A stretch of DNA of 64,000 nucleotides, from NCBI GenBank assembly GCA_026014495.1, contig JAOZIF010000150.1, forward strand, positions 1,131 to 65,130. Direction: 5' to 3'. Below are positions 18,234 to 49,671 of the stretch, piece by piece; within the stretch, counting starts at the first letter, position 1; every line of letters starts with the position of its first letter. A model generated the notes under the pieces. The model did not search any database and was not told where the DNA came from. It was given only the letters and a program-made list of their open reading frames with translations. The stretch is from Candidatus Bathyarchaeum sp. GTDB lineage: Archaea; Thermoproteota; Bathyarchaeia; Bathyarchaeales; Bathyarchaeaceae. Position numbers and translations under genes: made by a program.

Positions 18234-18407
18234 ATGATAACTAAAATATTTACAGATGAAGAGCGCCAAATCTTGGAATCACATCTCATTAATGCTAAGG
18301 TTGACAAAGCTGCACTCACTGAACTTCTTGACCAAATAACGAACCAGAAAAGCTTGTTTGATGACGTTTTCTTGTATCTTCAAGTTAAGAAAACGCTTAC
18401 TTCCTGA
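18234..18407 (+). CDS. 57-aa hypothetical protein (MITKIFTDEERQILESHL...)
   Basis: Open ATG..TGA frame with upstream AAAGGTTTTAT promoter-like sequence; below the ORF-track cutoff. Confidence 0.6.
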   Translation: MITKIFTDEERQILESHLINAKVDKAALTELLDQITNQKSLFDDVFLYLQVKKTLTS

Positions 18408-18453
18408 AAAAAGCTTGTTTTCAACAATGAACCTCTATTAGTCTCCTAATATG
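18404..18453 (+). repeat. Dispersed ~50-bp element, copy A
   Basis: ctgaaaaaagcttgttttcaacaatgaacctctattagtctcctaatatg; matches copies B-D. Confidence 0.9.
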
Positions 18454-18606
18454 GCTGGGCTCTTTGTCTACTTTAGTTCCTGTAACAATAACAAAACATG
18501 ACCTCTTGGAATTATTAACCTAAACTATAGGTCAAATACGAAAAGGTTTTTAGTTCCGTCCTATTACAAAAGAGACAAAACGTAGTTCATGTATGAGGTG
18601 ATTTGT

Positions 18607-19341
18607 GTGTCTGTATTTGCCGCACCGGGAGCTTACGATCGTGCCATCACAGTATTTTCTCCAGATGGTCGTCTATTTCAGGTCGAATATGCCCTAGAGA
18701 CTGTGAATCGTGGGGCAACCATCATTGGAATTGCTTGTGCTGGAGGAGTTGTTTTAGGTGCAGAAGAAAAAATTGAGACTCCTTTGCAAGATCCGACTTT
18801 TACTTGGAAACTTTATGGTGTTGATGATCATCTTGGAGCAGCAGTTGTTGGTTTGGGATCTGATGCTCGGATACTAATTGATCAGGCTAGAATCTATGCA
18901 CAAAGCAACAGGTTAACGTATGATGAACCAATTGATGTTGAAATAATGACTAAACGTGTTGGGGATGTAAAACAGCTTTACACTCAGCATGCAGGTGTAA
19001 GACCTTTTGGTGTTTCAATCATTTTTGGTGGAGTAGACAAAACTGGAAACAGAGTATTTGCAACCGATCCAAGTGGTTCCTACCGGGGCTACAAGGCAGT
19101 TGCTGTGGGCATTGGTCGTGAGACTGTAGAGGGCATCTTGAAAGAAGAGTATAATGAAGACCTTAGTTTGGATGATGCTGTTAAACTTGCTGTTAAATGT
19201 CTAACACGCGGCCTCGAAGCTAGAGGCGAGCCCAAAAGAATCAAAATAAGTGTTATTCCCGTGGATACAAAGAAGATCCAAGCACTAAACGACGAAGCAA
19301 TTGAGACTATCCAAAGAGGGCTTGAGGGCAGTGGAACTTAA
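18607..19341 (+). CDS. psmA: Proteasome alpha subunit
   Basis: YDRAITVFSPDGRLFQVEYA; GTG start after GAGGTG. Confidence 0.97.
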   Translation: MSVFAAPGAYDRAITVFSPDGRLFQVEYALETVNRGATIIGIACAGGVVLGAEEKIETPLQDPTFTWKLYGVDDHLGAAVVGLGSDARILIDQARIYAQSNRLTYDEPIDVEIMTKRVGDVKQLYTQHAGVRPFGVSIIFGGVDKTGNRVFATDPSGSYRGYKAVAVGIGRETVEGILKEEYNEDLSLDDAVKLAVKCLTRGLEARGEPKRIKISVIPVDTKKIQALNDEAIETIQRGLEGSGT

Positions 19342-20033
19342 TGAGCGAACGTTACACCATAGCACGCATCACACATGATGGCGAGCACTTCGAAATTCTA
19401 ACAAAACCTGATCGTGCTCTTCCCTATAAGCTAGGGAAAATCTCTTCTTCTATATCCGAAGTTCTGGTTACAGACACAATTTTTGTTGATGCTGGCAAAG
19501 GAACAAAAGCCTCAGAAGAAAAACTGCAGGAAATCTTTGGAACCACAGACCCGCTAAAAATAGCTGACGTGATTATTAAGAAGGGTACCTTGCAGTTAAC
19601 TACCGAACAACGGAAACAGCTTGTTGAAGAAAAACGGCGCCAAATTATTTCGTTTATATCACGTGAATGTATTGATCCAAAAACAAATCTTCCTCATCCA
19701 CCCGTGCGGATTGAACAGGCAATGAAGCAACTTCACTACTCTATAGATGCTTCTAAAAGTGTGGAAGAGCAGTCAAAAGAAGTAATTAAGCTCCTACGTC
19801 CAATTATTCCCCTTAAAATGGAGAAAATCTCAGTGGAAATCCACGTACCTCCCGAGCATGCTAGCAAAGTTTACGGAACCGTTAAAGGCTTCGGTACGCT
19901 AAAGAGAGACCAATGGCTGGCTGACGGGTCTTGGTCTGCAATCGTGGAAATGTCCGCTGGTATGTATGGTCCTTTTTTGGACAAGTTGGGGAAAGTGACC
20001 CGAGGAAATATTGAAGCGAAAATGGTAAAATAA
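19341..20033 (+). CDS. Ribosome maturation factor SBDS/Sdo1
   Basis: HFEIL, QLTTEQRK, DPKTNLPHPP motifs; superoperon position. Confidence 0.95.
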   Translation: MSERYTIARITHDGEHFEILTKPDRALPYKLGKISSSISEVLVTDTIFVDAGKGTKASEEKLQEIFGTTDPLKIADVIIKKGTLQLTTEQRKQLVEEKRRQIISFISRECIDPKTNLPHPPVRIEQAMKQLHYSIDASKSVEEQSKEVIKLLRPIIPLKMEKISVEIHVPPEHASKVYGTVKGFGTLKRDQWLADGSWSAIVEMSAGMYGPFLDKLGKVTRGNIEAKMVK

Positions 20034-20060
20034 TTAAAAAATTTATTGAGGTGTTAAAAT

Positions 20061-20762
20061 ATGCCCTTATTTTATGAAAAAAAACAGCTTGTAATTCCTG
20101 GTGACCTTCTCGCTGAAGGTGATTACGTATCAGGAGACAGCACCTATAAAACAGATGGAAAAATTTATGCTTGTCGTCTTGGGCTTGTCGATTACGACGG
20201 TAAAAGAGTTCACGTCGTTGCCCTAAAAGCATTTTATATTCCAGTCCCTGGAGACCTAGTTATAGGAAACGTCGTTGAAACAACACCTGGCGGTTGGGTT
20301 ATAGACATCAAAGCTCCCCATCTTGCTAGGCTTAGAGCATCTGATGTTGTTGAACGATCCTTTAAACCCGAAACAACAGATTTGCCATCAATCTTTGATG
20401 TAGGCGATCTGATAATCGCAAAGGTAGTTGCCTATGACCGAACTCGAGACCCACAGTTGAGTGTCCGTGAACCCGGTTTGGGGAAGATTATGCGGGGGCA
20501 GCTTGTTGAAGTTACTCCCACAAAGATTCCAAGAATTATTGGGAGACAGGGTTCCATGGTGGGTATGATAAAGAGGGAGACTGGCTGTCAGTTGACTATT
20601 GGTCAGAACGGTTTGGTTCTTATTAGTGGCAGGTCTGCTGAGGATGAACGGGTTGCTATTATGGCTCTTCGTAAAATTGAGCGTGAATCCCATACTAGTG
20701 GGTTAACTGACAAAGTAACTGAGATGATTAGAAAGGAAAGGAAAGCAGTTGAAAGCAAATAA
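20061..20762 (+). CDS. rrp4: Exosome RNA-binding subunit Rrp4
   Basis: VIPGDLL, S1 domain, KH domain ([10 protein letters not shown]). Confidence 0.95.
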
Positions 20763-20790
20763 AAAGAAACCTAAAAAAGAGGGAGAAAAG

Positions 20791-21528
20791 ATGACCTCTA
20801 AAAAATCTGAGAAATTAATTGATAAGAAAGGTATCCGTTTAGATGGACGAAAAGTAGACGAGTTACGACCAGTGAAGATGGAAGTTGGTGTTCTTCCAAA
20901 CGCAGACGGTTCAGCATATCTGGAGCAGGGAAGAAATAAGATTCTTGTAGGTGTATATGGACCTAAAGAGGCTCATCCTCGACACATAGCACAACAGGAT
21001 CGCGCTGTCATTCAATGCCGCTATCACATGGCGCCATTTTCGGTTGACGAAAGAAAGTCGCCTGCGCCTTCAAGAAGAGATATTGAACTCTCAAAGGTAA
21101 TCAGAGAAGCATTAGAGCCAGCAGTTTTTCTTGAATACTATCCTCGAACATCAATTCAAGTATATATCGAAATCTTGCAGGCAGATGGAGGAACAAGATG
21201 CGCTGGTATAACTACGGCTGCTCTTGCATTGGCAGACGCTGGAATTCCTATGCGCGACTTGGTTGTAGCTTGTGCTGCTGGCAAGGCTGGCGGAAAAATA
21301 GCTCTTGATCTTATGGACACTGAAGATAAAGTCGGTGAAGCTGATGTGCCTGTGGCTTTTATGCCTAATCTGAATGCCGTAACTTTGTTGCAGATGGATG
21401 GTAATTTGTCTGTTGACGAGTTTAATACTGCTGTTGATATGGCTATTGGTGGCTGTAAGAAGCTGTATGAAATTCAGAAGGAAGCGTTAAAATCAAAATA
21501 TGTCTCTGAGGGGGTTAAAGAAGAATGA
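20791..21528 (+). CDS. rrp41: Exosome exonuclease Rrp41
   Basis: [24 protein letters not shown]; ATG after GGAGA. Confidence 0.96.
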
Positions 21529-22325
21529 CCTCAACGATTGTTGTGAATGTTAAGAAAAAGCGAATTACTGAACTTCTTGCGGGCGGAAAACGAACCGACG
21601 GACGAGGAGTAAATGACTACCGCGAAATCCAAATAGAATCTGGCGTTATTGAACGTGCTGAAGGTTCTGCTCGGGTGCGTTTAGGCAAAACTGAAATTAT
21701 TGTTGGCGTAAAAATTGGAACTGGAACTCCGTTTCCGGACACTCCTGACACAGGTGTTCTAACTGTTAATGCTGAACTTGTGCCTCTTGCGTCTCCATCT
21801 TTTGAGCCTGGCCCACCTGGAGAGGATGCAGTGGAGTTGGCTCGTGTCGTGGACAGAGGTATACGTGAATCTAAAGCAATTGACTTGGAGAAACTGTGCG
21901 TTGAGTCTGGCAAACTGGTTTTCGTTGTTTTTGTGGACGTTTATGTTCTTAATCATGACGGAAACCTCATTGATGCTTCGGCTATGGCTGCCTTAGCTGC
22001 TTTGGTCAACACGAAGATGTTCAAGTATACTGTAGAAGAAGGAGAAATCGTGAAGAAGCCTGGTTACACTCCCCTTCCAATGCTTGACTATCCGATAGCT
22101 GTTACTTTCGCCAAGATAGGCAATAAGCTCATATTGGACACTGGACTTGATGAGGAGCAGGTTATGGATGCACGATTGACGATTACCATGAACAAAGACG
22201 GAAACATATGTGCCATACAGAAGGGCGGTGGTTCAGGATATTTCACTCGCGAGGAGATATCAGAAGCCACAAAAATTGCCGTGGAAAAAACTGCAGAATT
22301 AAGAAAAGTCGTGGTTAAAAGCTAA
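21525..22325 (+). CDS. rrp42: Exosome subunit Rrp42
   Basis: [32 protein letters not shown]. Confidence 0.96.
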
Positions 22326-22600
22326 TGGGAAGAAAAACAAAAAAAGTTGCTATGACTAGAGGACTTGGGACTCGTTACGGCGCAACTGTCAGAAAACGTT
22401 ACATAAAAGTTGTTACAGAAGCCAAAAAGACCCACAAGTGTCCACAATGTGGCGCTGAGGCGGTCACACGTGTGAGTGTTGGCGTCTGGAACTGCAAAAA
22501 ATGTGATGTAACTTTTACTGGTGGTGCCTATACTCCAGTTACGAAGCTTGGGGTTGTGGCAAAGCGTCAAGTAAAGAGTTTGTCCTCTTCCGAATCCTAG
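22325..22600 (+). CDS. rpl37ae: 50S ribosomal protein L37ae
   Basis: GTRYGATVRK, CPQC...CKKC zinc ribbon, FTGGAY. Confidence 0.95.
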   Translation: MGRKTKKVAMTRGLGTRYGATVRKRYIKVVTEAKKTHKCPQCGAEAVTRVSVGVWNCKKCDVTFTGGAYTPVTKLGVVAKRQVKSLSSSES

Positions 22601-22662
22601 ACCTAATAGCCATTAAGGCGAAAGCCTTCTTGGTCACCTTTTTTTGGTGAGGTGGACTAAAT

Positions 22663-23928: not shown

Positions 23929-23940
23929 GATGAAAACCTC

Positions 23941-25269: not shown

Positions 25270-26118
25270 TTGGCTGTAATCAAGACCAACGATTTAACGT
25301 ACACATATCCTGGCGCAACAAAGCCATCCATCGAAAAGGTATCCCTAACCATAAACAAGGGCGACTTTGTCATCTTAACTGGTCCCAGTGGATGCGGAAA
25401 AACAACACTTTGTAGGTGCTTCAATGGGTTAGTGCCCCATTTTTACAATGGGAAACTGGAAGGAACACTTACCGTAGCGGGTCTAGATGTGGCTGAGCAC
25501 CAAATCTACGAACTTGCACGCCACGTAGGGCTTGTATTTCAGAATCCCGAAAATCAGCTTTTTGCACTGTCGGTTGAAAAGGATGTGGCATTTGGTCTGG
25601 AAAACTTTGCTATGCCCCGAGAAGAAATGAGAAAACGTGTCGAGTGGGCGCTCAAAATGGCGGGAATAAGTGAGCTTGCTGAACGTCCTCCACATGAGCT
25701 TTCAGGTGGACAACAACAGCGGGTTGCAATTGCTTCTGTGCTTGCAATGCAGCCTGACATTATGATTTTGGATGAGCCCACCTCGTTTCTTGATCCATTG
25801 GGTGCCGAAAAAATATTTGAGGTAATCAATGACTTAAACAAGAAGCTGGGAATTACAACTATTTTGGTTGAGCACAGGCTTGACCTTGCTGCAAAGTATG
25901 CGAATCATGTTATTGTTATGGATAACGGCAAGGTTGCATTAACAGGTAGTCCCAGAGAAATTTTTTCTTCTGAAGAAGCGCGTTTGATTGGTGTTGGTAT
26001 TCCAAAGGCAACAAAACTGTATCAGCATCTTAAGAAAAATGGGGTAGAGCTAAAATCTGTTCCAGTTACAACCGAAGAGGCTGCGAATCTTTTACGGGAG
26101 GTCTTAAAGAATGCTTGA
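25270..26118 (+). CDS. ECF transporter ATP-binding protein
   Basis: GPSGCGKT, FQNPENQ, LSGGQ, LDEPT. Confidence 0.9.
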   Translation: MAVIKTNDLTYTYPGATKPSIEKVSLTINKGDFVILTGPSGCGKTTLCRCFNGLVPHFYNGKLEGTLTVAGLDVAEHQIYELARHVGLVFQNPENQLFALSVEKDVAFGLENFAMPREEMRKRVEWALKMAGISELAERPPHELSGGQQQRVAIASVLAMQPDIMILDEPTSFLDPLGAEKIFEVINDLNKKLGITTILVEHRLDLAAKYANHVIVMDNGKVALTGSPREIFSSEEARLIGVGIPKATKLYQHLKKNGVELKSVPVTTEEAANLLREVLKNA

Positions 26119-26932
26119 AGTCAAAGACCTCTTTTACGCTTATCCTACTGGTCTTGAAGCCCTTAAGGGAATCAATTTAACTGTTGATGATGGCGAATTC
26201 TTGGCTGTCATGGGACAAAATGGGGCAGGAAAAACAACGCTTGTTAAACACTTCAATGGGCTTTTAAAGCCAACCTCGGGCGAGGTCTTAGTTGATGGGG
26301 TAAGCACTCGTGATGTGAGTGTTGCAAAGCTTGCTAGAACTGTTGGTTTTGTGTTTCAAAATCCAGACCATCAACTGTTCAGTGAGAGCGTTGAAGAAGA
26401 GATTGCGTTTGCGCTCAAAAATTTTGGTTTCGAAGAGACAGTTATAGAAAAGCAGGTTACTTGGGCTTTGAATCTTTTAGATGTGCTTGAGTATCGGAAG
26501 ACGTCGCCTTTTATGCTCAGTGGAGGCGAACGAAAGCGGGTTGCTTTGGCTTCTATTCTTGCTTGGGACCCTAATGTAATTATTTTGGATGAGCCAACGA
26601 TTGGTCAAGACCATCAGCAAAAAGAGAAACTGCAGCAGTTTATTTTGCAATTAAATGCTCAAAAGAAGACTGTTGTTGTTGTCACGCATGATGTAGAGTT
26701 TGTGGCTGAATGTAATCCTCGTGTTATTTTGATGCGTCAGGGAAAAGTTTTGGTTGATGGTAAAGCGGAGAAGATTTTGACTGATCCCGAGTTGTTGTTG
26801 CAGGCTTCTATTGTTCCTCCGCAGATAACGCAGATTTTTCTTGAGTTGGCTGATTTTGGGTTGCCAACAGACGTTATTGATGTTCATGTAGCCACTAAGG
26901 TTTTGTTGAACCGTTTGAGGGGGCAATCATGA
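26111..26932 (+). CDS. ECF transporter ATP-binding protein
   Basis: GQNGAGKT, FQNPDHQ, LSGGE. Confidence 0.9.
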   Translation: MLEVKDLFYAYPTGLEALKGINLTVDDGEFLAVMGQNGAGKTTLVKHFNGLLKPTSGEVLVDGVSTRDVSVAKLARTVGFVFQNPDHQLFSESVEEEIAFALKNFGFEETVIEKQVTWALNLLDVLEYRKTSPFMLSGGERKRVALASILAWDPNVIILDEPTIGQDHQQKEKLQQFILQLNAQKKTVVVVTHDVEFVAECNPRVILMRQGKVLVDGKAEKILTDPELLLQASIVPPQITQIFLELADFGLPTDVIDVHVATKVLLNRLRGQS

Positions 26933-30452: not shown

Positions 30453-30466
30453 GTCTTTTTCCTCAC

Positions 30467-31492
30467 TTATGTCATCATCTTGTTTGCTATGTTCTGTTTT
30501 ATGTCCAATAAATCCCGCAATACTGCGCTGGCAGTTTCTACTCCACCTGCCCCCAAGCCAATGATTGTTTGCTCTCCAGCAGATTCGGAAACAAACGTTA
30601 CAGCGTTAAGGGCTCCATCAACAGCTAAAGGATCATGCTTGGATATTTGGGTCGGCTCCACTTTTAGGGTTTCTCCGATAACGCCTATGAGCTTTATTGT
30701 GCAGCCCTTCTTTGCAGCATCCTGTATGTTCTGGGCTGACACTTCACGGATGCCCTTAATATTCACATCTTTAATCGTGACTTTCCTGTCCATTATCCAG
30801 TTCGCCATAATCACAAGCTTCGCAGCCGCATCATAACCATCAACATCCATCGTAGGGTCAGCCTCAGCAAACCCAAGCTTCTGCGCTGCAGTCAAAGCCT
30901 CATCAAACGTAATGTGCTTCTCATCCATCTCAGAAAGAATGTAATTTGTAGTTCCATTCAATATACCCTTAACAGAAACTAGCCTATCACCCTGCAGACA
31001 ATTTTTTGCAAACTCAAGAACAGGAGTTCCCGCACCAACAGTTCCACTAAAACGCAAGTAAACCTTATTGTGGTCAGCCAACTCAGTCAGCGCTGGCAAC
31101 GCAAGAGCCAAAGGCCCCTTGTTTGTTGTAACCACATGCTTTCCTGTTCTAAACGCAGTTTTAATGTAGGATAATCCAGGTTCTCCATCTTCAATGTTGG
31201 TGGGCGACACCTCAACCACCGCTTCAGCCTCAACAGACTCTATCACATCTAGCGCAGACATGTCAGGACGCCCATATTGGCCACTGGCTGACACTGTACC
31301 CTTCTCTTTTTTCAAAGACAGCATCAACTCCAAGTCTAGCCCCTTCTGGTTTATGGCTGCGCCTTTCTTGTCAACTATAGCTACAATTCTGGGACGAAAA
31401 CCGTACTTCTTGGCAAGCTCCCTCTTTCTGCTCAGAAAGATTTTGGCTAAACTTTGCCCGACTACTCCCCATCCCACCAAGATTATCCTCAT
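30467..31492 (-). CDS. hom: Homoserine dehydrogenase
   Basis: GWGVVG, NKGP, GILNGTTNYIL, AEADP, GAGG.ETASAV. Confidence 0.95.
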   Translation of the reverse strand: MRIILVGWGVVGQSLAKIFLSRKRELAKKYGFRPRIVAIVDKKGAAINQKGLDLELMLSLKKEKGTVSASGQYGRPDMSALDVIESVEAEAVVEVSPTNIEDGEPGLSYIKTAFRTGKHVVTTNKGPLALALPALTELADHNKVYLRFSGTVGAGTPVLEFAKNCLQGDRLVSVKGILNGTTNYILSEMDEKHITFDEALTAAQKLGFAEADPTMDVDGYDAAAKLVIMANWIMDRKVTIKDVNIKGIREVSAQNIQDAAKKGCTIKLIGVIGETLKVEPTQISKHDPLAVDGALNAVTFVSESAGEQTIIGLGAGGVETASAVLRDLLDIKQNIANKMMT

Positions 31493-31616
31493 CGTTGTTC
31501 ACTCTGCAAGCGCTGTTTACTGTTGTATATTGAATCTTCTCTATTACAGTTACGTTTTATAAATAATAACCGCGCCTCAAAAAACAACCCTACCCGTTAT
31601 TCACATTTCTGTGCGG

Positions 31617-31668
31617 CATATTAGGATACAAATAGAGGTTCATTGTTGAAAACTAACTTTTTTTCTGA
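31617..31668 (-). repeat. Dispersed ~50-bp element, copy B (reverse orientation)
   Basis: Minus strand tcagaaaaaaagttagttttcaacaatgaacctctatttgtatcctaatatg. Confidence 0.88.
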
Positions 31669-31823
31669 AAAATGTTGCACAGCGCACATTTACCAAAAAA
31701 GTTCACACGACCATATTGACACCAGAACATTTTGTTGAACATAACTTTGAGGCTCCAGCCCTGTTTCTTTTCACGATTGGTTAATTAACCTCCAGCATAT
31801 ACGTTCAGGTCGGTGCTGCCAAA

Positions 31824-32045
31824 ATGAGTAACTCAGAGGACATGGAACTCAGGGACGCCTACAAACACTGGGCTGAGCAAGTAGAACATCACCAGTATCA
31901 AATTTTTGTGGAAACCGCCAAAATCGTGGATTTACTAAAGAAAAAAGAGGCATCTGCGAGAACAAAAAACGAGATGCTAATAGTCCTTAAAGGCTTGCAG
32001 GCAACCGTGAAATCTATCTCTAAGGTGCTTTCAAAGTACATCTGA
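31824..32045 (+). CDS. Hypothetical helical protein (73 aa)
   Basis: Clean ORF with protein-like amphipathic composition; no motif recognised. Confidence 0.6.
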   Translation: MSNSEDMELRDAYKHWAEQVEHHQYQIFVETAKIVDLLKKKEASARTKNEMLIVLKGLQATVKSISKVLSKYI

Positions 32046-32067
32046 TAATGACGCAAATTATATTGCT

Positions 32068-33291
32068 CTATTTGGATGAATCACCGTTTTTTCCCAAAAA
32101 CAGCGACATAAACGCTTCACCCTCTACCAAACCATACACTCCCTTCTTGGCAGAGTCCTCGTCAAAGCGTTTCACACAATCAGCTTTAGCCGATGGCGAA
32201 TAAATCGCAAACGGAACAGGGTCTCTTGTATGCGTGCCAATACTGATAGGTGTTGGATGATCAGGCAAAACAGCAACAACGCACTCTTCTTTTAATCCAT
32301 CCAGTGCCCGCCCAAGAAGTCGCTTATCCAAATCCTCTATTGTTTTCACCTTAAGATTGCAATCTCTGGAATGGCCTGCCTCATCTGGCGCCTCAACGTG
32401 AACAACAACCATGTCATACTCTTCAAGCGCTTCTAGTGCATGGTCTGCTTTGCCTTCATAGTTAGTATCATACAAACCAGTAGCACCCGGAACCTGAATA
32501 ACCTTCATTCCCGCGTAAACTCCAATCCCCTTCATCAAATCAACCGCAGAAATAACCGCAGACGTTACCCCATGCCTTTCTTTGAATGTCGGCATAACTG
32601 GCGTTTTGCCCCCGCCCCAAGGCCAAATCATGTTTCCCGCCCTTTTACCTGCCCGTTCTCTGGCAACATTAACTGGATGCTTTTCCAAAATCTGTTTAGA
32701 CTCAAGAATCATTTTGCTCAGCAACGCTGCAGTACTCTTTGTTTGCTCTGTTTTGGCTTTTGGCAAAATCTCTGAAATTTTCTTTCCTATAGAATCATGA
32801 GGCAAATTGCACTCAACAAGTTCATTATGCATATAATTTCTTAAAATCAAGAAATGACGGTAGCTTAAACCCACAAAAAACTCAACCTCGCCCTGCTTTT
32901 GCATCTTACGCTTTAACAAATCTATTAGCTCTTCAGCCTCACTGTTTGTTATATGGTCAGCGGAGTAATCAACCAAAATGCCATCTTTTTCTGTAATCAG
33001 ATTACATCTGTATGCTACATCGTTTTTGTTTAGTTTGATGTTTCTGGCAGCAGCTTCGAATGGTCCCCTTCCAGTATAGTATGATGATGGATCATAGCCA
33101 AGAACTGAAAGGAGCGCAGGACCTGAACCTGGAGTCAAAGCTTCTGGAACTGTTTTAAGCAGCCCATTTCGCCCTTTGGCTGCAATCATATCAATGTTCG
33201 GCTTGTTTGCAACTTGAAGTGGCGTCTTGTTGCCTAGTTCTGCAACAGGATAGTCTGCCATTCCGTCTCCAATAACTAGTAAATACTTCAT
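32068..33291 (-). CDS. apgM: Cofactor-independent phosphoglycerate mutase family (ApgM / proposed homoserine kinase)
   Basis: GDGMAD, TPLQ.A, PGS, HVEAPDEAGH, PDHPTP, HTRDPVP. Confidence 0.9.
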   Translation of the reverse strand: MKYLLVIGDGMADYPVAELGNKTPLQVANKPNIDMIAAKGRNGLLKTVPEALTPGSGPALLSVLGYDPSSYYTGRGPFEAAARNIKLNKNDVAYRCNLITEKDGILVDYSADHITNSEAEELIDLLKRKMQKQGEVEFFVGLSYRHFLILRNYMHNELVECNLPHDSIGKKISEILPKAKTEQTKSTAALLSKMILESKQILEKHPVNVARERAGKRAGNMIWPWGGGKTPVMPTFKERHGVTSAVISAVDLMKGIGVYAGMKVIQVPGATGLYDTNYEGKADHALEALEEYDMVVVHVEAPDEAGHSRDCNLKVKTIEDLDKRLLGRALDGLKEECVVAVLPDHPTPISIGTHTRDPVPFAIYSPSAKADCVKRFDEDSAKKGVYGLVEGEAFMSLFLGKNGDSSK

Positions 33292-37198: not shown

Positions 37199-38772
37199 TC
37201 TTCATTTATTTCCTGTTTTAGTTCATGTTTGCAAATTGCACGTTTTTTACTCCTAATCTTGTTGTGTAGTTTTCGTTTGTAAACGTTTAATGCAAATATA
37301 AGAACTGAGAGCGCAATCAACGTGAAAGTCCATGACGAAAATTCTGGAAGCTCATTGGAGATGCTGACTGGAGTCATAAGAGGGTACCTGTCTGTGCTGT
37401 TAGAGTAGCTGTCAATGATGTATTGTGTATCACCTATGTTGTCGCCGTTTGTGTCTGTGGCGTTGTATGCTTCCCAGTAATTGCCTTCAAAACCGTTATC
37501 CCAAAAGTTTTGGATGTCCCTGTCTCCCGGTGAACCCGTCCAGTTTCCTATGAAATTGTTGTGGAAAAACGTGTTGTTTGCTGAATTATGCCAGATGTTA
37601 AAGTAACAAAAGTTGTCAACCACATTGTTTTCTGTTATTGTACAGTTAAGTGTATCTTCAAAATAGAACGCCGCATACCCATTATCGCTTATCAGATTAC
37701 CAAAAATGGTGCAGTTGGAAACCAGATCAAATCTGATAGCATTGAAGTTTTCAGTTAATGTTGAATTAGATATTCTTGAGTCACTTGTTTTAACAAAAAG
37801 TATGGCGTCCCAGTTGGGCGTTGATGCCCAATTTTCAACGGTTATGTTGTTGCAGTTTATTGCTGCTATCCACCCTGCATCTGTTGGCACTTGGATGTCT
37901 GATTGGTTGACAAGAAAATAGACTGGTTTTCCATTGACAGTGTTTGTTGTGTCAATGCTGTGCATGTTGCGTTCCAATTGGGTGCCCAAAAGTTTGAACC
38001 CAACCTGATTGTCTACTAATGTGTTGTTTGAGAACTTGAGGTTGGTGCACTGGCGGATGTTGATTCCAATCATTTTTCGTTCAATCGTGTTGCCAAAAAC
38101 TTCACAGTTGTCACTTTGCTCAAGATTAATGGCTCCTACATCCGCAACGTAAAGCATTTCAACATCTTTGCGTGTCTCATTTGAAACCTTGTTATTTTTG
38201 ATTATAATGTTAGATGCACTAAGAATCGAAATCCCGCCCACATCGTTATCCATTATTATGGAGTCGCTGCCACGACTCAGACTAACCCCGCCTCTAGTTA
38301 TTGTGTTCTGTAAAATATTATTATAACATGAGCCTTGTATGTTGATGCCTCCACTTTCAACAATCTGGTTTCCTTGTATAACGCTGCAGTTTGTGTTGAG
38401 CCAGTAAAATGCATAACTAAATCCATGAATTCTAACATTTTGTACCGTCACATTATTTTCCATCTTTACATACAAACCCGTTCCACCGCCACCACCTAAC
38501 AGCTGGTAGCCGTTCCCATCAACTATAACATTGCTTCTCTCAACTGCTATGCCTCCTGAAACATCTCCCGTGAATGTGTACACGTTACCAACACGCTGAA
38601 TTGGCACAGTTGACGGGTCAACGCTTCCATCACTTCTGATAAAAATGCTTGAGGCATGATCTGGAGCTGGAATAAAATTTGCCTCTGCTAACTTTACAAA
38701 CTGCACTCCAATAGTTGCCAAAACTAAAAGAGCACAGATGCCCGTTGGTGCTAAAACTGTTCTCTTTTTAAT
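37195..38772 (-). CDS. NosD/CASH beta-helix surface protein with PEF anchor (probable ATT start)
   Basis: Paralog of 34722..36302 (DGSVDP, NTVNGKP, GNYW, LPEFSS); signal peptide extends in frame to ATT at 38772 behind GAGGA. Confidence 0.82.
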   Translation of the reverse strand: MKKRTVLAPTGICALLVLATIGVQFVKLAEANFIPAPDHASSIFIRSDGSVDPSTVPIQRVGNVYTFTGDVSGGIAVERSNVIVDGNGYQLLGGGGGTGLYVKMENNVTVQNVRIHGFSYAFYWLNTNCSVIQGNQIVESGGINIQGSCYNNILQNTITRGGVSLSRGSDSIIMDNDVGGISILSASNIIIKNNKVSNETRKDVEMLYVADVGAINLEQSDNCEVFGNTIERKMIGINIRQCTNLKFSNNTLVDNQVGFKLLGTQLERNMHSIDTTNTVNGKPVYFLVNQSDIQVPTDAGWIAAINCNNITVENWASTPNWDAILFVKTSDSRISNSTLTENFNAIRFDLVSNCTIFGNLISDNGYAAFYFEDTLNCTITENNVVDNFCYFNIWHNSANNTFFHNNFIGNWTGSPGDRDIQNFWDNGFEGNYWEAYNATDTNGDNIGDTQYIIDSYSNSTDRYPLMTPVSISNELPEFSSWTFTLIALSVLIFALNVYKRKLHNKIRSKKRAICKHELKQEINEE

Positions 38773-38945
38773 TTTTCCTCGACCGCCTTTTGGGGTTTAA
38801 GGAACAGCATGTACACTGATATTGCTACAAAAATGGTTGATGCGCTTGCTATCATGCAAATGTGTTGTATTTGTAAACTTGGACAAAAGTAGCCTAAAAC
38901 AACCGACAACATCGCTAACGGAAGTGTTAATGCATATTTGTTCAT
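38751..38945 (-). CDS. Small two-TM membrane protein
   Basis: GGTGA upstream; two hydrophobic helices; first gene of operon. Confidence 0.55.
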   Translation of the reverse strand: MNKYALTLPLAMLSVVLGYFCPSLQIQHICMIASASTIFVAISVYMLFLKPQKAVEEKLKREQF

Positions 38946-38999
38946 GTTGGATTCACCAACAATGCATTATTATGGCTAAATATTGATAAAAGCATTTTT

Positions 39000-39060
39000 G
39001 TAAAGGTTTCTTGACCTATCAAATGATACATAAAGAACACTTTAGTCAAGGTTTCTTGAC
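39000..39060. promoter_or_regulatory. Two 16-bp palindromic operator-like sites
   Basis: GTAAAGgtttCTTGAC at 39000-39015 and GTCAAGgtttCTTGAC at 39045-39060, upstream of the surface-protein operon. Confidence 0.6.
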
Positions 39061-39135
39061 CAAAACCTTTCCAGCCCAGACTACGCTTTTTCTATCTGTT
39101 CTATTTCCAGAACAGAACAGATTATAGAAAAAAAT

Positions 39136-39184
39136 TCTGAAAAACCTGGTTCTCAACAATGAACTACTATTAGGAGACTAATAG
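39136..39184 (+). repeat. Dispersed ~50-bp element, copy C
   Basis: tctgaaaaacctggttctcaacaatgaactactattaggagactaatag; overlaps the stop codon of the CooC-like gene. Confidence 0.88.
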
Positions 39185-39939
39185 CCAGCCTTTTGCAGTA
39201 TCTCCTTCACCGAATTGTAGGCAATTGACGTTTCTGGCAAATCAAGCAAAGATTTACCATAAAGAACATAGTTTTCTACTTCTTTGTCGTAGCTGATTTT
39301 TCCAAGGTATTCTAGTTTCGTTCTTTTGGTGACTTCTGCTTCTAGGTCTTCTGGCACTCTGTTGCCTCCAACAACGTAGAAGTTGTTGAATTCTATCTTT
39401 ATTTCGTTGGCTATTTTGTATGCTCGCTCTACATGGTGAAACGATTTCTGTGATGGGTCAATGATGTCGAATATATCGTCGATTTTTGATGAGATTCGCC
39501 TGTTTAGGTGTTCTAGTCCACCTGGAGAGTCAATGATTACATACTGGTATGCTTTAATCAGACCTTGTAGCGCATTTTTTAGGGCATTGTTTGGAAGACA
39601 GTAACAGCCTTCAATGAATTTTGTTCCAATGGCCATGAAGTCAAAGTTTTGTCCCTCGTAGAGTCCAAGTTCCCAGATTTTGCTTTCAATTCTTTTGGAT
39701 GGGGGCACTCCAACTGTGGTGCCTCCGCTTTCAAGGAAGGTTTCTACAAGTAATTCGGAGACAGTTTTTTTTCCTACTTCTTTTAGGTCGATTCCAAGCA
39801 TTTCGGAGAGGTTCTGGTCTGGGTCTGCGTCGATAAGAAGTATTGGAGTTTCGCCTTTTTCGATGAAATATTTTGTCATAAGGGAAACAAAGGTTGTTTT
39901 GCCGCTGCCTCCTCTACCCATGGTAACAAGTCTCTTCAT
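39178..39939 (-). CDS. CooC/AcsF-like ATPase
   Basis: GRGGSGKT, IDADPDQNL, EGCYC, GLEHLNRR. Confidence 0.85.
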   Translation of the reverse strand: MKRLVTMGRGGSGKTTFVSLMTKYFIEKGETPILLIDADPDQNLSEMLGIDLKEVGKKTVSELLVETFLESGGTTVGVPPSKRIESKIWELGLYEGQNFDFMAIGTKFIEGCYCLPNNALKNALQGLIKAYQYVIIDSPGGLEHLNRRISSKIDDIFDIIDPSQKSFHHVERAYKIANEIKIEFNNFYVVGGNRVPEDLEAEVTKRTKLEYLGKISYDKEVENYVLYGKSLLDLPETSIAYNSVKEILQKAGY

Positions 39940-44282: not shown

Positions 44283-44429
44283 ATGGCAATTGACCCAGTT
44301 TGTAAAATGAAAGTGGACGAAAAAACGGCAAAGCACAAAGCCGTTTACAAAGGAAAAACCTACTACTTCTGTGCTCCCGGATGCAAAATAGCCTTTGAAG
44401 AGAACCCTGAAAAATACCTCAAAGCATAA
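44283..44429 (+). CDS. YHS/TRASH-domain metal-binding protein (48 aa)
   Basis: MAIDPVCKM...YKGKTYYFCAPGC...PEKY; GGAGGTGA upstream. Confidence 0.9.
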   Translation: MAIDPVCKMKVDEKTAKHKAVYKGKTYYFCAPGCKIAFEENPEKYLKA

Positions 44430-44533
44430 CAAACAGACAACGCATGCAAAAATCAAGTAATGGCTAGCAGTTAACATGCTGCTTTAACATCGATAAGGTT
44501 ATTAGTTTTTTTAAACATTGAAGTTTAGCCTCT

Positions 44534-44609
44534 GGTGGGGTGGCTGAATGGTTTAGGCGGCAGCCTGCAGAGTTGCTCTATAAGGGTTCAATTCCCTTCC
44601 CCACCTCCA
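44534..44609 (+). tRNA. tRNA-Cys(GCA), intronless, with encoded CCA
   Basis: Acceptor GGTGGGG/CCCCACC, anticodon arm GCAGC-CTGCAGA-GTTGC, T arm AAGGG-TTCAATT-CCCTT, U73 discriminator. Confidence 0.95.
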
Positions 44610-44801
44610 AAACTCCTATTGTGGTCTCCTTTTTGTGATGAATCAAAAAACTATGCTACAAAGAAACTAGTTTCAAAGAAGCAAATAGTGTTCTTTGGAA
44701 CATGGTAAAGAACTGTATCTTTCTGCTCCTAAATCTGTTGGTGGTTTATCTGTGAGAAATTAGTTCATTTATGTGGAAAAAAGAGTCAATCTTGTTCTCT
44801 T

Positions 44802-45002: not shown

Positions 45003-45326
45003 AGACAAATCTTTACTTTCCCTCCTTTTTATCCACTGTTTAGTTGATAGAAGACTCAAAATGAAGGACAAAAACTTTGATTCTTGTCAAGGTCCATTAA
45101 GAAAATACTACCACTATATAGTAACACGTTGTCTCTTATTAATACAGCACTTTTAGTGTCATGCAAGAAAGCGTGACTGTGGGTTCATTTGTTGTCTTCT
45201 CCACAACGTAAACACCATAGTAGTTTGTTTACCTGTTTTGTGCTGAGAATTACACCCAGTTTGTGGCTGGTTTAGAAAGTTTAAAGTTTAGATAAACTAG
45301 TTAACAGTGTATCAGTAGGAGAGGCG

Positions 45327-46508
45327 TTGAATCTGGAAAAGAAAAAACTAGTTTTTGTTATATGCCTCATTGTTGTTCTTTTTGCAAGTGCTTTTAGTGT
45401 ATTGGTGCTGTTGGTTGACGAAGGTCCTCAAGGTGAGGAATATGCAGCTTTAGCTGAACAATTGCTAAGTGACGCTCGAGAAGACTTTGAATCCATTCGT
45501 GGAACGCCTGTTAGGGAAGTAGTTCTTGAAGTAGTAAATGAAACATGGGTGCTCGAAAACTGGGGTGTAGCCTATGTTGACGTTGACGAAATAGCTATGG
45601 AAGAAAACATCTACAAGGCCTTGTTTATGATCGCTCAGGATGTCAACTTGACTGATGTTGAGCTTAAGTGGGTTGGCAGTTATCATGCAGCAAAGTGGAA
45701 AGGCACAATCTATGTTGTTGAAGAGAACTTTGATGTAACCAACGAGTTTAAGGCTACGTCAACTTTTGTTCATGAGTTAACCCACATCATGCAAGATGAG
45801 TACTCTTTTCCGACAAGAACAACATTTGATGGTGGCAAAGCCTTATCTTCTTTGAAGGAGGGAGATGCAACCTTAATGGCTGATACCTTCAAAAACGGTG
45901 GAGTTGTGCCTTCTTTGGCCGAAGTGAATATTCCTAGTTCGTCGACTCTTCCAGAATCTATTAACAAACTTAACAGATTTGTATACCGTTATGGTGTCGA
46001 ATTTGTTAAAGCCCTGTATTATCATGATGATGGTGGCTGGAACGCTGTTGACGAAGCATACGAGAATCCGCCTAACACGACCGAACAGATAATGCACCCT
46101 GAAAAATACTTTGCAATGGAAGATGCCCTAACTGTTGAAGCGACATCCATAACTGGGGATTGGACTTTAACAATGACGGACAGTTTTGGGGAATACTATA
46201 TTCTTGTTATGCTGGATAATTGGCTTTCCAGTGATGCTGCAAAGCTGGCAGCGGAAGGCTGGGGCGGAGATACATTCAACTATTACAATGGTGGTGACGA
46301 TTTTCTTTTTACTTGGGACATTGTTTGGGATTCTAATGAAGACGCTTACGAATTTTATACAGTATTTCAGGACATGATGGACAAAACATCTGCAACTAAC
46401 AAGACTGATGATTGCTGGTTTGCGTATGGAAGATACCTTTCAATTCAATGGACTGAAAACTCGACTTTGATATCAAGTTCAACTAATGAAACTTTGTCTA
46501 TTGGCTGA
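45327..46508 (+). CDS. Membrane-anchored zincin-like protein (Hvo_1808-like)
   Basis: N-terminal TM; HELTHIMQD, EGDA, PP.TTEQIMHPEKY, AAEGWGGD. Confidence 0.8.
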   Translation: MNLEKKKLVFVICLIVVLFASAFSVLVLLVDEGPQGEEYAALAEQLLSDAREDFESIRGTPVREVVLEVVNETWVLENWGVAYVDVDEIAMEENIYKALFMIAQDVNLTDVELKWVGSYHAAKWKGTIYVVEENFDVTNEFKATSTFVHELTHIMQDEYSFPTRTTFDGGKALSSLKEGDATLMADTFKNGGVVPSLAEVNIPSSSTLPESINKLNRFVYRYGVEFVKALYYHDDGGWNAVDEAYENPPNTTEQIMHPEKYFAMEDALTVEATSITGDWTLTMTDSFGEYYILVMLDNWLSSDAAKLAAEGWGGDTFNYYNGGDDFLFTWDIVWDSNEDAYEFYTVFQDMMDKTSATNKTDDCWFAYGRYLSIQWTENSTLISSSTNETLSIG

Positions 46509-46555
46509 AATTGTTATATACTTTTTTAGGTTTAGATTTCTCACAGCTAAGGAGA

Positions 46556-47230
46556 ATGGGGGCAATGAATAAAATAACTGATTTTTCTGACTTATCGCAG
46601 GCTCTTGTAGACAAGACACTTACAAAACAAGGGCTTCTGAAAACAGTTAGGCAAGATTTTAGTATGATTCCTTTACTGCTTACGGGAGTTGGTTCTCCAA
46701 AAGCTGCTGTTAGATACGGCTGTGCAAAAGTGCTGATGGATTTAAGTGAAGACTACCCCGAGAAATTGTATCCCCACATGGACGTATTCGTTGACATGTT
46801 GGACAGCAAGTATCGTATCATAATTTGGAATGCATTGGCTATACTCGCAAATCTAACTCGAGTTGACGCAGACAAAAAGTTTGATGCCATTTTTGACAAG
46901 TATTACAGCTTTTTAGATCACGATTACATGGTTACAGTGGCTAATGTTGTTGGCAACTCAGCTAAGATTGCGTTGGCGAAGCCCTATCTTATATCTGGTA
47001 TTACTGATGAGTTGCTCAAAGTTCAACATCTATCCTTAACTCCTCATCTAACTGAAGAATGCAAGAGAGTCATAGCTCAGCAAACTATCAAATCTTTTGA
47101 TTTGTTTTTTGACCAAATTAGTCAAAAAGAAAACGTGCTCTCCTTTGTTAAGATACATCTTGATAGCCCACGAGAAAAGCTTAGACTAGCTGCAGAAATT
47201 TTTGTTAAAAAATGGGGCAATTCATTCTAA
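46556..47230 (+). CDS. HEAT/ARM-like helical hypothetical protein
   Basis: VRYGCAKVL..LSE..PEKLYP, IIWNAL helical-repeat pattern; start may be 46565. Confidence 0.65.
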   Translation: MGAMNKITDFSDLSQALVDKTLTKQGLLKTVRQDFSMIPLLLTGVGSPKAAVRYGCAKVLMDLSEDYPEKLYPHMDVFVDMLDSKYRIIIWNALAILANLTRVDADKKFDAIFDKYYSFLDHDYMVTVANVVGNSAKIALAKPYLISGITDELLKVQHLSLTPHLTEECKRVIAQQTIKSFDLFFDQISQKENVLSFVKIHLDSPREKLRLAAEIFVKKWGNSF

Positions 47231-47395
47231 TTGTGTGGTATCGTAGCCTGATAGTGTTGCTGAATACTTGGGCTGTATGTTAAAATATGCTTTAGGACGT
47301 GAAGTGTATTTCTGTTGTTCCTGTCTACAAAAACGGATTCAGACTTCAGAACCTTTTAATTATATTATGCATAAAAACTTGAAAGGAGTTCCTAA

Positions 47396-47515
47396 ATGAA
47401 AGTAGATGAATCTTTTGAAACACTGTTGAAACGCCGCGGGTGCTCTGATAAAGCAATCAAGGAACTCTGGAAATGGTTTGATTATTCAGAAAAAAAGGGC
47501 GTTGCCAGCTTCTAA
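47396..47515 (+). CDS. 39-aa hypothetical protein MKVDESFETLLKRRGCSDKAIKELWKWFDYSEKKGVASF
   Basis: AAAGGAG upstream; TATA-like CCTTTTAAT; protein-like composition. Confidence 0.65.
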   Translation: MKVDESFETLLKRRGCSDKAIKELWKWFDYSEKKGVASF

Positions 47516-47580
47516 CAGGCTCATTTAGAATCAACTTTTTAATATTATACTTTGTAGTTATACTATCTGAGTTGGGCTAA

Positions 47581-48081
47581 TTGGTTGGAAAACAAAAAAC
47601 TGCAATCCAGATTTCTTTAATGGCTGTTATGTCCGCACTGGTAAGCGTGGGAACCCTGATTGTCCAGATTCCTAACACTATGGGCGGCTACTTTAACGTT
47701 GGAGATGTCATGATTTTTGTTGCTGCACTAACTTTTGGTCCTCTTGTAGGCGGTGTTGCAGGTGGATTAGGCTCAGCTATAGCAGATGTTATAAGCTTTC
47801 CAGTATTTGCTGTTCCAACTTTGGTTGTCAAAGGTTTAGAAGGTTTACTGGCAGGCTTGGTTACAAGCAAGAAAAGTGTTTTTCGTGATGTTCTTGCAGT
47901 AGTTATTGCTGGAACCGAGATGATTATCGGTTATTTTCTGGTTGAGGTTTATCTTTGGGGTGTAGGTAGTGCGTTGGCGGAAGTTCCGGCAAATATTGCC
48001 CAAATTGCTGTTGGTGGTCTTGTTGGAATTCCTATTGCTCTTGTTTTGCGTAGAAGACTACCTGAAATCCTTAGGGAATAA
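47581..48081 (+). CDS. ECF transporter S component
   Basis: GGYFNVGD, GLGSAIAD, PT...KGLEG, N.AQ; ~6 TM. Confidence 0.85.
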   Translation: MVGKQKTAIQISLMAVMSALVSVGTLIVQIPNTMGGYFNVGDVMIFVAALTFGPLVGGVAGGLGSAIADVISFPVFAVPTLVVKGLEGLLAGLVTSKKSVFRDVLAVVIAGTEMIIGYFLVEVYLWGVGSALAEVPANIAQIAVGGLVGIPIALVLRRRLPEILRE

Positions 48082-48161
48082 AATGTGCGTAAACATTTTT
48101 ACGGTAGCGCATACAGTTTTCTAGTCTCGATGTTTAGTTTCATTAAGGTGGACCATGAAGC

Positions 48162-49589
48162 ATGGTTGGCAACTTGTCAAGAACACCAAAAAAGCTGAAG
48201 AAGGCTCTAGTAGTTGTTTTTCGGCGTGACCCTTCAAAGGTCAAAAGTGTTTTAGAATCAGAAGGTTTTGAGGTTGTTGACCAGAACCCTGATTTTATTG
48301 TCTGTTATGGCGGAGACGGCACTGTCCTGTTTAGTGAGCGAGAGTTTCCTGAGGTTCCAAAGCTTATCATCAAAACTTCACGAGCATGCAGAATGTATGA
48401 TTATGCCCTAAGCGACCTGCGTGAGTTGTTGTCTAAGCTTAAGGATGGCAAATACCTGATTCATTTTGAGATGAAACTAGAGACAGTGGCTAAGGGCGAA
48501 CGTCTTGTTGGTTTGAATGAGATTCAGGTTCACCTAAAGTTGCCAATTTATGCTGTGAGATTTTCTTTATCTGTTGATGGAAAACAGTATAATGAGCTGA
48601 TTGGTGACGGCGTAATTGTTGCCACCTCCTTTGGTTCCACAGCATACTACAAGGCAACTGGAGGAAAGAGTTTCGAAAAGGGACTTGGCATCTCCTTTAA
48701 CAATCTGCACAACAATGATGCAAAGAGCTTTGTGGTTCCAGAAGATTCAGTTGTGACTCTGACAATCACTAGGGGTCCTGCGTGGCTGTTGGCTGATAAC
48801 AACGAAAACTTTGTTGCATTGGATGCGGGAGACAAAATAGCTATCCGCAAGTCTGAGAGTGTTGCCAATTTCATTTACTTTGATTCTCCAGTAGAGTCCA
48901 CGCCATCTAATTTGGGTGCGCATTCCTTTTTGAAGATAGGACATAGAGGAGCAAGAGCTTACGAGCCAGAGAATACCCTGCGGAGCTTCCGGAAAGCTAT
49001 TGAGCTTGGGGTTGACGCAGTGGAACTGGATGTTAGAAAAACAAAGGATGACCAGATTGTTGTTATCCACAATGATGACGTGAACAAAACCACTAATGGC
49101 AAAGGCGCGGTTAGTGAGCTTACTTTAGAACAGATAAAGCAACTATTTACCGAGAAAGGCGAGCCGATACCTACCTTAGATGAAGTGCTGGATTCTGTGG
49201 GTAAGCAGGTGAAGGTTCTTATTGAGCTTAAGGAAACTGGACTTGAAGAGCAGGTCATGGATTTGATTAGCAAGAAAGGGCTGGTTGAGAATGTGGTAAT
49301 CATTTCTTTCCATGAAGATGCCCTGAGGAATGTTAGGGCACTAAATGCTGATGTGGCAACTGGTTTGGTTTATGTGCGTCACAAGAACCCCATACAGGCA
49401 GCTTTGGATTTGAAAGCACAGTATCTGTTGTCACTGTATAGTTTCACTCACTCTGCAACCATCAAAAAAGCTCATGAAAACGGGTTAAAGGTGATTGTGT
49501 GGACCATTAATAAAAAAGAAGATGTTGCGGTCTACAGAAAAAAAGGCGTTGACGGCATAGCAAGCGACAGTCCCGACATCTTAAATTAA
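48162..49589 (+). CDS. NAD kinase - glycerophosphodiester phosphodiesterase fusion
   Basis: N-terminal GGDGT, LNE, GDG, GSTAY; C-terminal GHRGA, PENTL, ELDV, VWTIN, VDGIASD. Confidence 0.82.
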   Translation: MVGNLSRTPKKLKKALVVVFRRDPSKVKSVLESEGFEVVDQNPDFIVCYGGDGTVLFSEREFPEVPKLIIKTSRACRMYDYALSDLRELLSKLKDGKYLIHFEMKLETVAKGERLVGLNEIQVHLKLPIYAVRFSLSVDGKQYNELIGDGVIVATSFGSTAYYKATGGKSFEKGLGISFNNLHNNDAKSFVVPEDSVVTLTITRGPAWLLADNNENFVALDAGDKIAIRKSESVANFIYFDSPVESTPSNLGAHSFLKIGHRGARAYEPENTLRSFRKAIELGVDAVELDVRKTKDDQIVVIHNDDVNKTTNGKGAVSELTLEQIKQLFTEKGEPIPTLDEVLDSVGKQVKVLIELKETGLEEQVMDLISKKGLVENVVIISFHEDALRNVRALNADVATGLVYVRHKNPIQAALDLKAQYLLSLYSFTHSATIKKAHENGLKVIVWTINKKEDVAVYRKKGVDGIASDSPDILN

Positions 49590-49620
49590 GAATTAATTGG
49601 CGTTGTTCTTGCTTGGAATT

Positions 49621-49671
49621 TCTGAAAAAAGCTAGTTTTCAACAATGAACTGCTATTAGGAGACTAATATG
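49621..49671 (+). repeat. Dispersed ~50-bp element, copy D
   Basis: tctgaaaaaagctagttttcaacaatgaactgctattaggagactaatatg, between convergent genes. Confidence 0.9.

Follow-up and report, generated by a model that had tools for sequence, protein, structure and literature searches.

A dispersed intergenic repeat of a Bathyarchaeia genus with copies at crossover points of genome rearrangement

Within a stretch of 64,000 nucleotides from the genome of Candidatus Bathyarchaeum sp. (contig JAOZIF010000150.1, positions 1,131 to 65,130; hereafter the window), a short element occurs four times, and an initial annotation, made from the sequence alone, had read these occurrences as dif/Xer-like sites at junctions of core and accessory genes. 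All four copies are present. Copy A, of the short form, occupies 18401-18453 on the + strand (nhmmer envelope 18399-18471) and lies 217 nt past an HTH_45 gene (17933-18184) and 135 nt ahead of psmA (18589-19341), which encodes the proteasome alpha subunit. Copy B, on the - strand, is of a long form of about 113-125 nt (~31596-31708, core 31617-31670) and separates apgM (32068-33291, -) from the homoserine dehydrogenase gene hom (30467-31492, -); its 5' extension begins GTGTGAAC and its 3' extension is CCGCACAG..GTGTGAATAA. Copy C (39135-39184, +) is again short, with its loop flipped (GAGA), and its last bases hold the stop codon of a MinD/ParA-like open reading frame (ORF; 39178-39939, -). 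Copy D (49619-49671, +), also short and loop-flipped, sits between the converging 3' ends of a GDPD gene (48162-49589, +) and a secreted-family gene (49676-50803, -). Copies C and D thus bear out the claim that copies abut gene 3' ends, and copy A, at its distance from the HTH gene, does not; likewise small or secreted-type genes adjoin copies A, C and D, together with core genes, while none adjoins copy B, for which an accessory neighbour had also been claimed.

Copy D illustrates the layout of the element. Its first block (B1, 49620-49631, +) is TTCTGAAAAAAG, near-invariant over 246 unique copies as judged by column entropies; the second (B2, 49635-49646, +) is the invariant GTTTTCAACAAT, with a variable patch (V1) before it and another (V2, 49647-49652) after it; and the third and fourth (B3/B4, 49653-49669, +) form a palindrome of CTATTAG, the 4-nt loop GAGA and CTAATA, where GAGA is the reverse complement of the commoner loop state TCTC. 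All four window copies share one 12-mer, TCAACAATGAAC, and then diverge (CCT, CCT, CTA and CTG), as the initial annotation had it, and three of the four were grouped independently by a de novo repeat search. A 13-mer alone is weak within the window (6 matches at two or fewer mismatches, with 3.9 expected); a stricter 21-nt pattern finds 34 matches across the genome and none in a backwards control, so that the four copies are not due to chance. In contigs assembled from one DNA run and covering the window, summed depth was high at the copies and one tandem duplication was seen, at copy D, which has a tandem second copy in one related metagenome contig; the excision circles that had been suggested as a check left no excision joint in the contigs of that run.

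Two observations concern the immediate surroundings of copies B and C. The interval between the apgM stop and copy B (31798-32067) is kept across the genus, matches in relatives reaching query position 603-658, well beyond the gene end, and it holds a 73-aa ORF (31824-32045, +) that may be an unannotated small gene. A pair of direct 29-nt repeats, 45 nt apart and each with AAGGTTTCTTGACC as its end, occupies 38988-39061 immediately upstream of copy C; it adjoins a 64-aa ORF (38751-38945, -) and could represent paired regulator binding sites.

The genome of the window (G000 in our numbering; 2.19 Mb, 93% complete, in a fragmented assembly) contains many more copies, in keeping with the proposal of a chromosome-wide set. 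With 64 anchored copies as the basis of an nhmmer profile, 113 hits were obtained (E<=1e-3), a density near one per 20 kb, and a pattern search gave 92 matches with none in the backwards control. Since 16 of its 392 contig ends fall within 150 nt of a copy, the true copy number is probably higher, and the repeat explains where the assembly breaks at these ends. Searched by block pattern only, 19 of the 23 other species of the genus have the element, the range over species being 0-79 copies with the maximum in G018. Four species (G003, G005, G019 and G022) have zero copies by this pattern, and one of these is a 97%-complete single-contig genome, which argues against an indispensable role in the host. 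Outside the genus, the block pattern was found in 9 of 31 genomes from the family's remaining genera, each with 1-7 copies, and in 4 of 146 genomes from other families; the backwards control was zero in every genome. When a single genome of each species was scanned, 74 of 80 contigs among the matches listed bear titles naming Bathyarchaeia, Bathyarchaeota or Bathyarchaeum, the other six being single bacterial contigs with chance-like matches. The element is therefore a repeat family that is expanded in one genus of the Bathyarchaeia. In the relative assembled as a single scaffold (G024) at least 57 diverged copies are spread along the sequence, with no replication-strand polarity (runs test z -1.7). 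This scaffold bears identical 99-nt stretches bounded by runs of N near 1169235 and 1458843, which mark an overlap of contig ends; its order may be incorrect at this break, which falls at an element copy.

Our alignment comprises 246 unique copies, drawn from G000, from G024 and from 104 loci in other genomes. The unit measures about 55-80 nt, with an additional form of about 125 nt in G000, and its 65-column core consists of the near-invariant blocks TTTTCWGAAAAAAG, GTTTTCAACAAT, CTATTAG and CTAATATG, between which lie three hypervariable patches (4, 7 and 4 nt); the middle one is the variable centre described initially. The last two blocks make up the palindrome CTATTAG-N4-CTAATA(G/T), whose arms measure 6-7 bp around a loop of 4 nt, and this is the only symmetry that is conserved. 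In copy D the imperfect inverted arms that had been taken as the layout of the element match at 8 of their 13 positions, several of these lying within variable or flipping patches, and do not form a conserved inverted repeat. Conservation stops abruptly right after the palindrome. Among 93 copies the loop is TCTC in 34 and GAGA in 13, TATC in 22 and GATA in 2, ACTC in 4 and GAGT in 1, and TTTC in 3 and GAAA in 1, that is, flipped in 17; because four loop sequences occur in both orientations, the loop must have been inverted repeatedly. Around TTTTTCWGAAAAAAA there are runs of T on both strands. The conserved blocks, set among spacers that are free to vary, suggest that a protein reads them.

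About 28 of 102 anchored copies, copy B included, carry the extra conserved flanks of the long form, in which an outer stem CTGTGC/GCACAG is possible. The long form has many matches in G000 and, in the search of the genus, only one elsewhere (G017). Long and short forms have their variable patches in common, and these are reassorted among copies. In one place (G024, near 723958) two copies are fused head to head with a single common palindrome. A search for solitary palindromes as the reciprocal products of such fusions gave 87 solo matches and 235 for the relaxed motif in a shuffled genome; it is uninformative, and we retain the one fusion.

Comparison of orthologous spacers shows that copies are gained or lost where the surrounding genes stay in place. 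In the hom spacer, which holds copy B, the element is absent in five relatives (G004, G011, G013, G020 and G024), present in the short form in four (G001, G006, G015 and G018) and present in the long form only in G000, the flanking genes being unmoved in all relatives compared. At junctions of kept synteny, 3 of 17 gene sides with an element in G000 also have one in G024. Upstream of psmA, 8 of the 11 loci from relatives have an element in the same position, and its far-side neighbour differs, being a tRNA gene, an HTH gene or another gene. The condition that the initial annotation named as speaking against recombination sites, copies at syntenic positions with invariant neighbours, was not seen.

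A second line of evidence is that copies coincide with breaks in gene order, as had been anticipated. Comparing G000 with the whole G024 scaffold through 1023 reciprocal best BLASTP hits, we found 30 of 41 junctions with an element to be broken, against 178 of 836 junctions without one (odds ratio 10, p=8e-12). The excess persists among directly adjacent genes (14/20 broken with an element, 110/679 without; p=2e-7) and among adjacent genes whose spacer measures at least 100 nt net of the element (11/16 versus 65/242; p=9e-4). Viewed from the G024 side, breaks affect 4 of 8 junctions with an element (4 kept) and 60 of 640 without one (580 kept; p=0.0045), a further 11 element junctions being ambiguous as G000 contigs end there. 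Of 46 gene sides at broken junctions, 20 retain an element in G024, where the baseline is 98/2964, so there is a tendency for the element to remain beside one flank when the other is replaced.

Individual events can also be followed. Downstream of iscS-iscU, G000 has an element, a gene for a 358-aa GNAT-type protein, a second element on the same strand as the first, and nth; none of the 24 other genomes of the genus has a match to the GNAT gene. From metagenomes we collected 80 loci with IscS, the best 87% identical at the protein level, and iscU was found in 78 of them. An element lies within 400 nt past iscU in 14 of these 78, and two loci (L274 and L281) have the arrangement iscU-element-nth, with a single copy and no gene between. 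In locus L293 a neighbouring 3-kb segment lies between two inverted copies, and the same segment is inverted in L279 and L281; in the alignment of L279 with L293, collinearity gives way to inversion inside the element, and positions 6081-6135 of L279 match both inverted copies of L293. Copies of the repeat are thus shown to be switch points of rearrangements, in one traced inversion between inverted copies and in one gene standing between direct copies.

The spacing of copies has an orientation bias of its own. Neighbouring pairs no more than 4.25 kb apart are direct in 18 of 18 cases (p=8e-6), against 12 of 32 for pairs farther apart; in G024 the direct orientation is found in 8 of the 11 pairs spaced by 5 kb or less. 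Close direct pairs bracket 0-5 ORFs, arrays comprise at most three copies, and most copies are solitary. Over 14 pairs spaced 0.4-4.25 kb (one of them mis-anchored) the median identity is 0.71, against 0.73 for random pairs; being no more alike than random pairs, the members of close pairs are not local duplicates. The genes between them encode NosD/beta-helix, GNAT, radical SAM, CAP12/Pycsar TIR, TrmB-like winged helix-turn-helix (wHTH) and DUF6512 proteins, and four without a Pfam match. The TIR case is a 257-aa CAP12/Pycsar-effector protein (L261:2599-3372, equivalent to G000 contig C175 59098-59871, -) that stands alone between direct copies 813 nt apart, a defence-type gene in the position of a cassette.

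With respect to genes, called in G000 as longest ORFs (2069 ORFs covering 85% of the genome), the copies are essentially intergenic, and some supply the stop codon of the adjoining gene. Of the 89 copies for which both neighbours were called, 25 lie between co-oriented tandem genes, 25 between convergent, 22 between anti-oriented tandem and 17 between divergent genes; the 5' side of the element faces 55 gene ends and 41 starts, the 3' side 55 ends and 44 starts. This mixed arrangement, and the roughly equal facing of ends and starts, rule out a general promoter or terminator, and in our reading of the sequence the actual promoters of psmA, hom and the tRNA gene probably lie elsewhere and look different. 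Enriched beside copies are two families of secreted proteins (5/8 and 10/32 members) and a wHTH-membrane family, 4 of whose 7 members bear a copy on the 5' side, in one orientation. A k-mer scan of G000 found no repeat array, and an origin from CRISPR was rejected.

No enzyme could be matched to the repeat. The window's contig has no match to PF00589, PF01609, PF00665, PF13358, PF01797, PF07282 or PF01385, in agreement with the earlier statement that no recombinase or transposase lies in the window. The recombinase that was then expected elsewhere in the genome did not emerge: five PF00589 tyrosine recombinases are encoded in G000, the best XerA (NF040815) score being 99 bits against a cut-off of 220 in a genome 93% complete, where a true XerA may be unassembled, and the best integron integrase (TIGR02249) score being 60.5 bits against a cut-off of 265. 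As partners we considered the two integrase types that were profiled, and their distribution does not track the element: the type encoded on contig C140 occurs elsewhere in the genus only in G005, which has 0 copies, and the type on contig C10 occurs in 7 of 24 other genomes, including G019, also with 0 copies, and does not follow copy number. Two unrelated integrase genes, on C140 and in G024 at 1458951, have a copy within ~100 nt upstream, which is suggestive at most as a hint of a partner. Contigs C137 and C140 end in the same element copy and probably adjoin; the join would place a 414-aa tyrosine recombinase, whose only ortholog in the genus is in G005, 76 nt downstream of that copy. What appeared to be identical att-like duplicates in G024 proved to be the 99-nt overlap at the scaffold gaps.

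Transposases fared no better. In G000 there were 0 matches to PF01797 (Y1), PF07282 or PF01385 (TnpB/OrfB), whereas control genomes were matched. Three short contigs of G000 (C5, C92 and C20; 1.2-2.5 kb) carry one DDE transposase each, without a match elsewhere in the bin, and are either single-copy insertion sequences (IS) or mis-binned fragments. The ends of these transposases were rejected as a source of the repeat, sharing only chance matches of 8-12 nt with it, although binning may have lost insertion sequences. The alternative that had been named at the outset, the terminal repeat of an IS or of a MITE (a miniature transposable element with inverted repeats), found no parent with these ends.

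From these observations, we consider it somewhat more probable than all other accounts together that the four sites of the window are copies of an orphan mobile repeat, lineage-specific, non-coding, intergenic and prone to recombination. The comparisons show a repeat that is being copied, is confined in its expansion to one lineage and has its copies at crossover points. We propose that the conserved blocks may form the recognition surface of a trans-acting protein that inserts new copies, and that the palindrome at the 3' edge may be the place of DNA cutting or exchange, as conservation ends after it, its loop flips and the head-to-head fusion shares a single palindrome. Recombination between copies would then account for most of the large rearrangements, and a segment between direct copies may leave as a circle and re-enter at another copy, so that accessory genes would move as cassettes. 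By analogy with bacterial REP (repetitive extragenic palindromic), MITE and IS copies, we take the exchanges to be probably driven mainly by homology between repeats, with a dedicated enzyme as a live alternative; because crossovers cannot be mapped within 55 nt between species that are ~85% identical, the two modes are not told apart.

Several points weigh against the orphan mobile repeat. No enzyme was identified, and G000, at 93% completeness, is without Y1 transposase, TnpB or OrfB. Neither terminal inverted repeats nor target-site duplications appear in an alignment of 28 long copies with their flanks, and the insertion boundaries of short copies are not definable, their flanks being too diverged between species. 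For homologous recombination to be efficient, homology of 55-125 nt at ~70-90% identity is short. The breakpoint statistics depend on a single comparator genome, on crude longest-ORF calls and on an assembly that is fragmented partly at the repeats, and elements may simply accumulate in break-tolerant spacers. Conservation of the blocks across the genus could have its cause in a function for the host and not in a selfish one. Finally, G019 has neither element nor cassette at the iscU junction and at the junction on contig C113, and the order of events is therefore not fixed.

Of the competing explanations, the one that survives best is a dedicated site-specific system for shuffling cassettes, a dispersed counterpart of integrons or of Xer, in which a putative recombinase would bind the blocks and exchange strands at the palindrome, and excised circles would re-insert at other copies. 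We regard this as unlikely, though it accounts well for several features: the multi-block conservation with unconstrained spacers and its abrupt end after the palindrome, the reassortment of variable patches a few bases apart, the shared palindrome of the fusion, the strictly direct close pairs whose members are of unrelated subtypes, the alternation of a single copy with copy-gene-copy at the iscU locus, the accessory-type genes, defence-type TIR gene included, between close pairs, and the copies ahead of the two integrase genes. Against it stand the failure of any recombinase to track the element, none of the five tyrosine recombinases reaching the XerA or integron-integrase cut-offs, and a palindrome shorter than known tyrosine-recombinase cores. 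Most copies, moreover, are solitary and lie between housekeeping genes; the traced inversion, and copies arising in intact spacers, are unlike a resolvase-like, direct-only system; and the crossover point inside the element is not mappable. For the capture or shuffling of cassettes proposed initially, this means that direct pairs flanking 1-5 accessory genes, the one gene-between-copies locus and the one inversion switching inside the element speak in its favour, while a link to a recombinase finds no support.

Less probable still is a host-functional DNA site, bound by an architectural or boundary protein or acting as a two-way transcription stop, that would mark the ends of transcription units, breakpoints coinciding with it as such borders tolerate rearrangement. 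The blocks are indeed kept upstream of psmA in 8/11 relatives' loci while the patches drift, the T-runs on both strands would suit a stop, copies are slightly commoner beside gene ends than starts, and the wHTH-membrane family has its copies on the 5' side in one orientation. The four species without a copy by the block pattern, among them the 97%-complete single-contig genome, speak against this, as does the usual absence of the element from G024 where synteny is kept (3 of 17 gene sides). Furthermore, the 17 copies between divergent genes would need no stop and the 25 between convergent genes no promoter, the breakpoint excess survives matching for spacer length and gene arrangement, and the subfamilies and the G000-specific long form (~28 copies) point to copying rather than independent origin.

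A multi-copy small RNA gene or structured RNA motif is very improbable: two small hairpins and the outer stem of the long form can be drawn, and the flipped loop makes a GGAG seven bases ahead of a conserved ATG, but the element folds no better than shuffled sequences (z +1.0, -1.1 and -1.7, the last for the palindrome hairpin, which is predicted to be weak), Rfam 15 gave a tRNA as its only hit in the window and no family at the gathering threshold (best relaxed hit on copy B, E 0.62), the 246 unique copies show no long-range covariation, all pairs of high mutual information being neighbouring columns, copies have no preferred orientation relative to transcription, and no ORF of at least 90 aa begins at the ATG, which was thereby rejected as a start codon.

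If the orphan mobile repeat is the right account, its consequences reach beyond the window. Bathyarchaeia are abundant archaea of sediments that are known almost only from metagenome bins, and to our knowledge little has been written on what shapes their genomes; the repeat family would explain a large share of the differences in gene order between species of this genus. Defence-type and surface genes are among those enclosed by copies, so their rate of turnover may be set by the family. Should the exchange of cassettes prove true, it would amount to a chromosome-wide integron of ~100 docking sites that has neither the attC fold nor an integron integrase. The family shows none of the hallmarks of known repeat-moving enzymes, which points to an as yet unidentified protein partner, and the four zero-copy species, set against the many with 40-80 copies, offer a contrast by which this protein might be found.

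Two further features of the window are recorded for completeness. At 44423-44491, just upstream of a tRNA gene (44534-44606), 67 nt are replaced by two different 27-nt stretches in related metagenome contigs, and the promoter region of this tRNA gene thus varies among relatives. At 25705-25781 and 26522-26598 a 77-nt direct repeat of 73% identity lies within the adjacent ORFs 25270-26118 and 26111-26932, which look like tandem paralogous genes; the repeat resembles what we take to be an ATPase motif region.

Set beside known systems, the family shares single traits with several. The layout of dif/Xer sites is two conserved inverted arms of ~11 bp around a spacer of 6-8 bp, and in the pdif modules of plasmids such sites bracket movable accessory genes. 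The likeness lies in a short site with a variable centre and in the bracketing of accessory genes. The dif/Xer-like anatomy first proposed does not hold, however: dif occurs once per replicon, at the terminus, against 113 hits in 2.19 Mb here; the arms of the family measure 6-7 bp around a 4-nt loop, those proposed for copy D agreeing at 8/13 positions; and no protein of G000 reaches the cut-off for archaeal XerA. Plastid hairpin loops that flip-flop offer a parallel in the 4-nt loop between short inverted arms found in both orientations, although here the flips are seen among paralogous copies within one archaeal genome, where template switching or exchange between the arms may be the cause.

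The attC sites of integrons, among them clusters and lone sites that have no integrase, resemble the family in that direct repeats bracket single accessory genes and sites abut gene 3' ends. They differ from it in that sequence, not structure, is conserved in the family, that copies lie ~20 kb apart rather than in arrays, and that G000 has no integron integrase at the cut-off. An attC site is defined by an imperfect outer inverted repeat, the R and L boxes, by which the site as a whole is folded. Such an outer hairpin was hinted at by a few copies and then rejected for the family: behind the element, the TCAACAAT block recurs in reverse complement, with 7 or more of its 8 bases, in 3/85 copies of G000 and 1/37 of G024, against 14/1700 in shuffled sequence. 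The lack of a nearby integrase is itself a point of likeness, being reported for most archaeal attC cases in a study of these sites (PMC9668308).

MITEs, such as the Correia elements of Neisseria and the SM-type elements of Sulfolobus, are likewise non-autonomous units of 50-150 nt with subfamilies, present or absent at orthologous sites, inserted near genes and in some copies supplying a stop codon. In contrast to them, the family has no terminal inverted repeats or target duplications that we could see, and no parent IS with matching ends. REP sequences and their composites, bacterial interspersed mosaic elements (BIME) and REPINs with their REP-associated tyrosine transposases (RAYT), come close in other respects, being short repeats with a palindrome that number tens to hundreds of copies, lie strictly between genes and often just beyond 3' ends, are lineage-specific, sometimes tandem, and serve as substrates of rearrangement. 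The family departs from them in that G000 is without a Y1/RAYT gene, and in that its unit is mostly non-palindromic (only the last 17-18 nt are symmetric), AT-rich rather than GC-rich, and archaeal. At the level of listings and abstracts we found no description of this repeat, nor any literature on such repeats in Bathyarchaeia. Being multi-copy, intergenic and variably present, with crossovers inside its copies, the family fits the class of dispersed intergenic rearrangement-mediating repeats, which is a functional class rather than a curated family.

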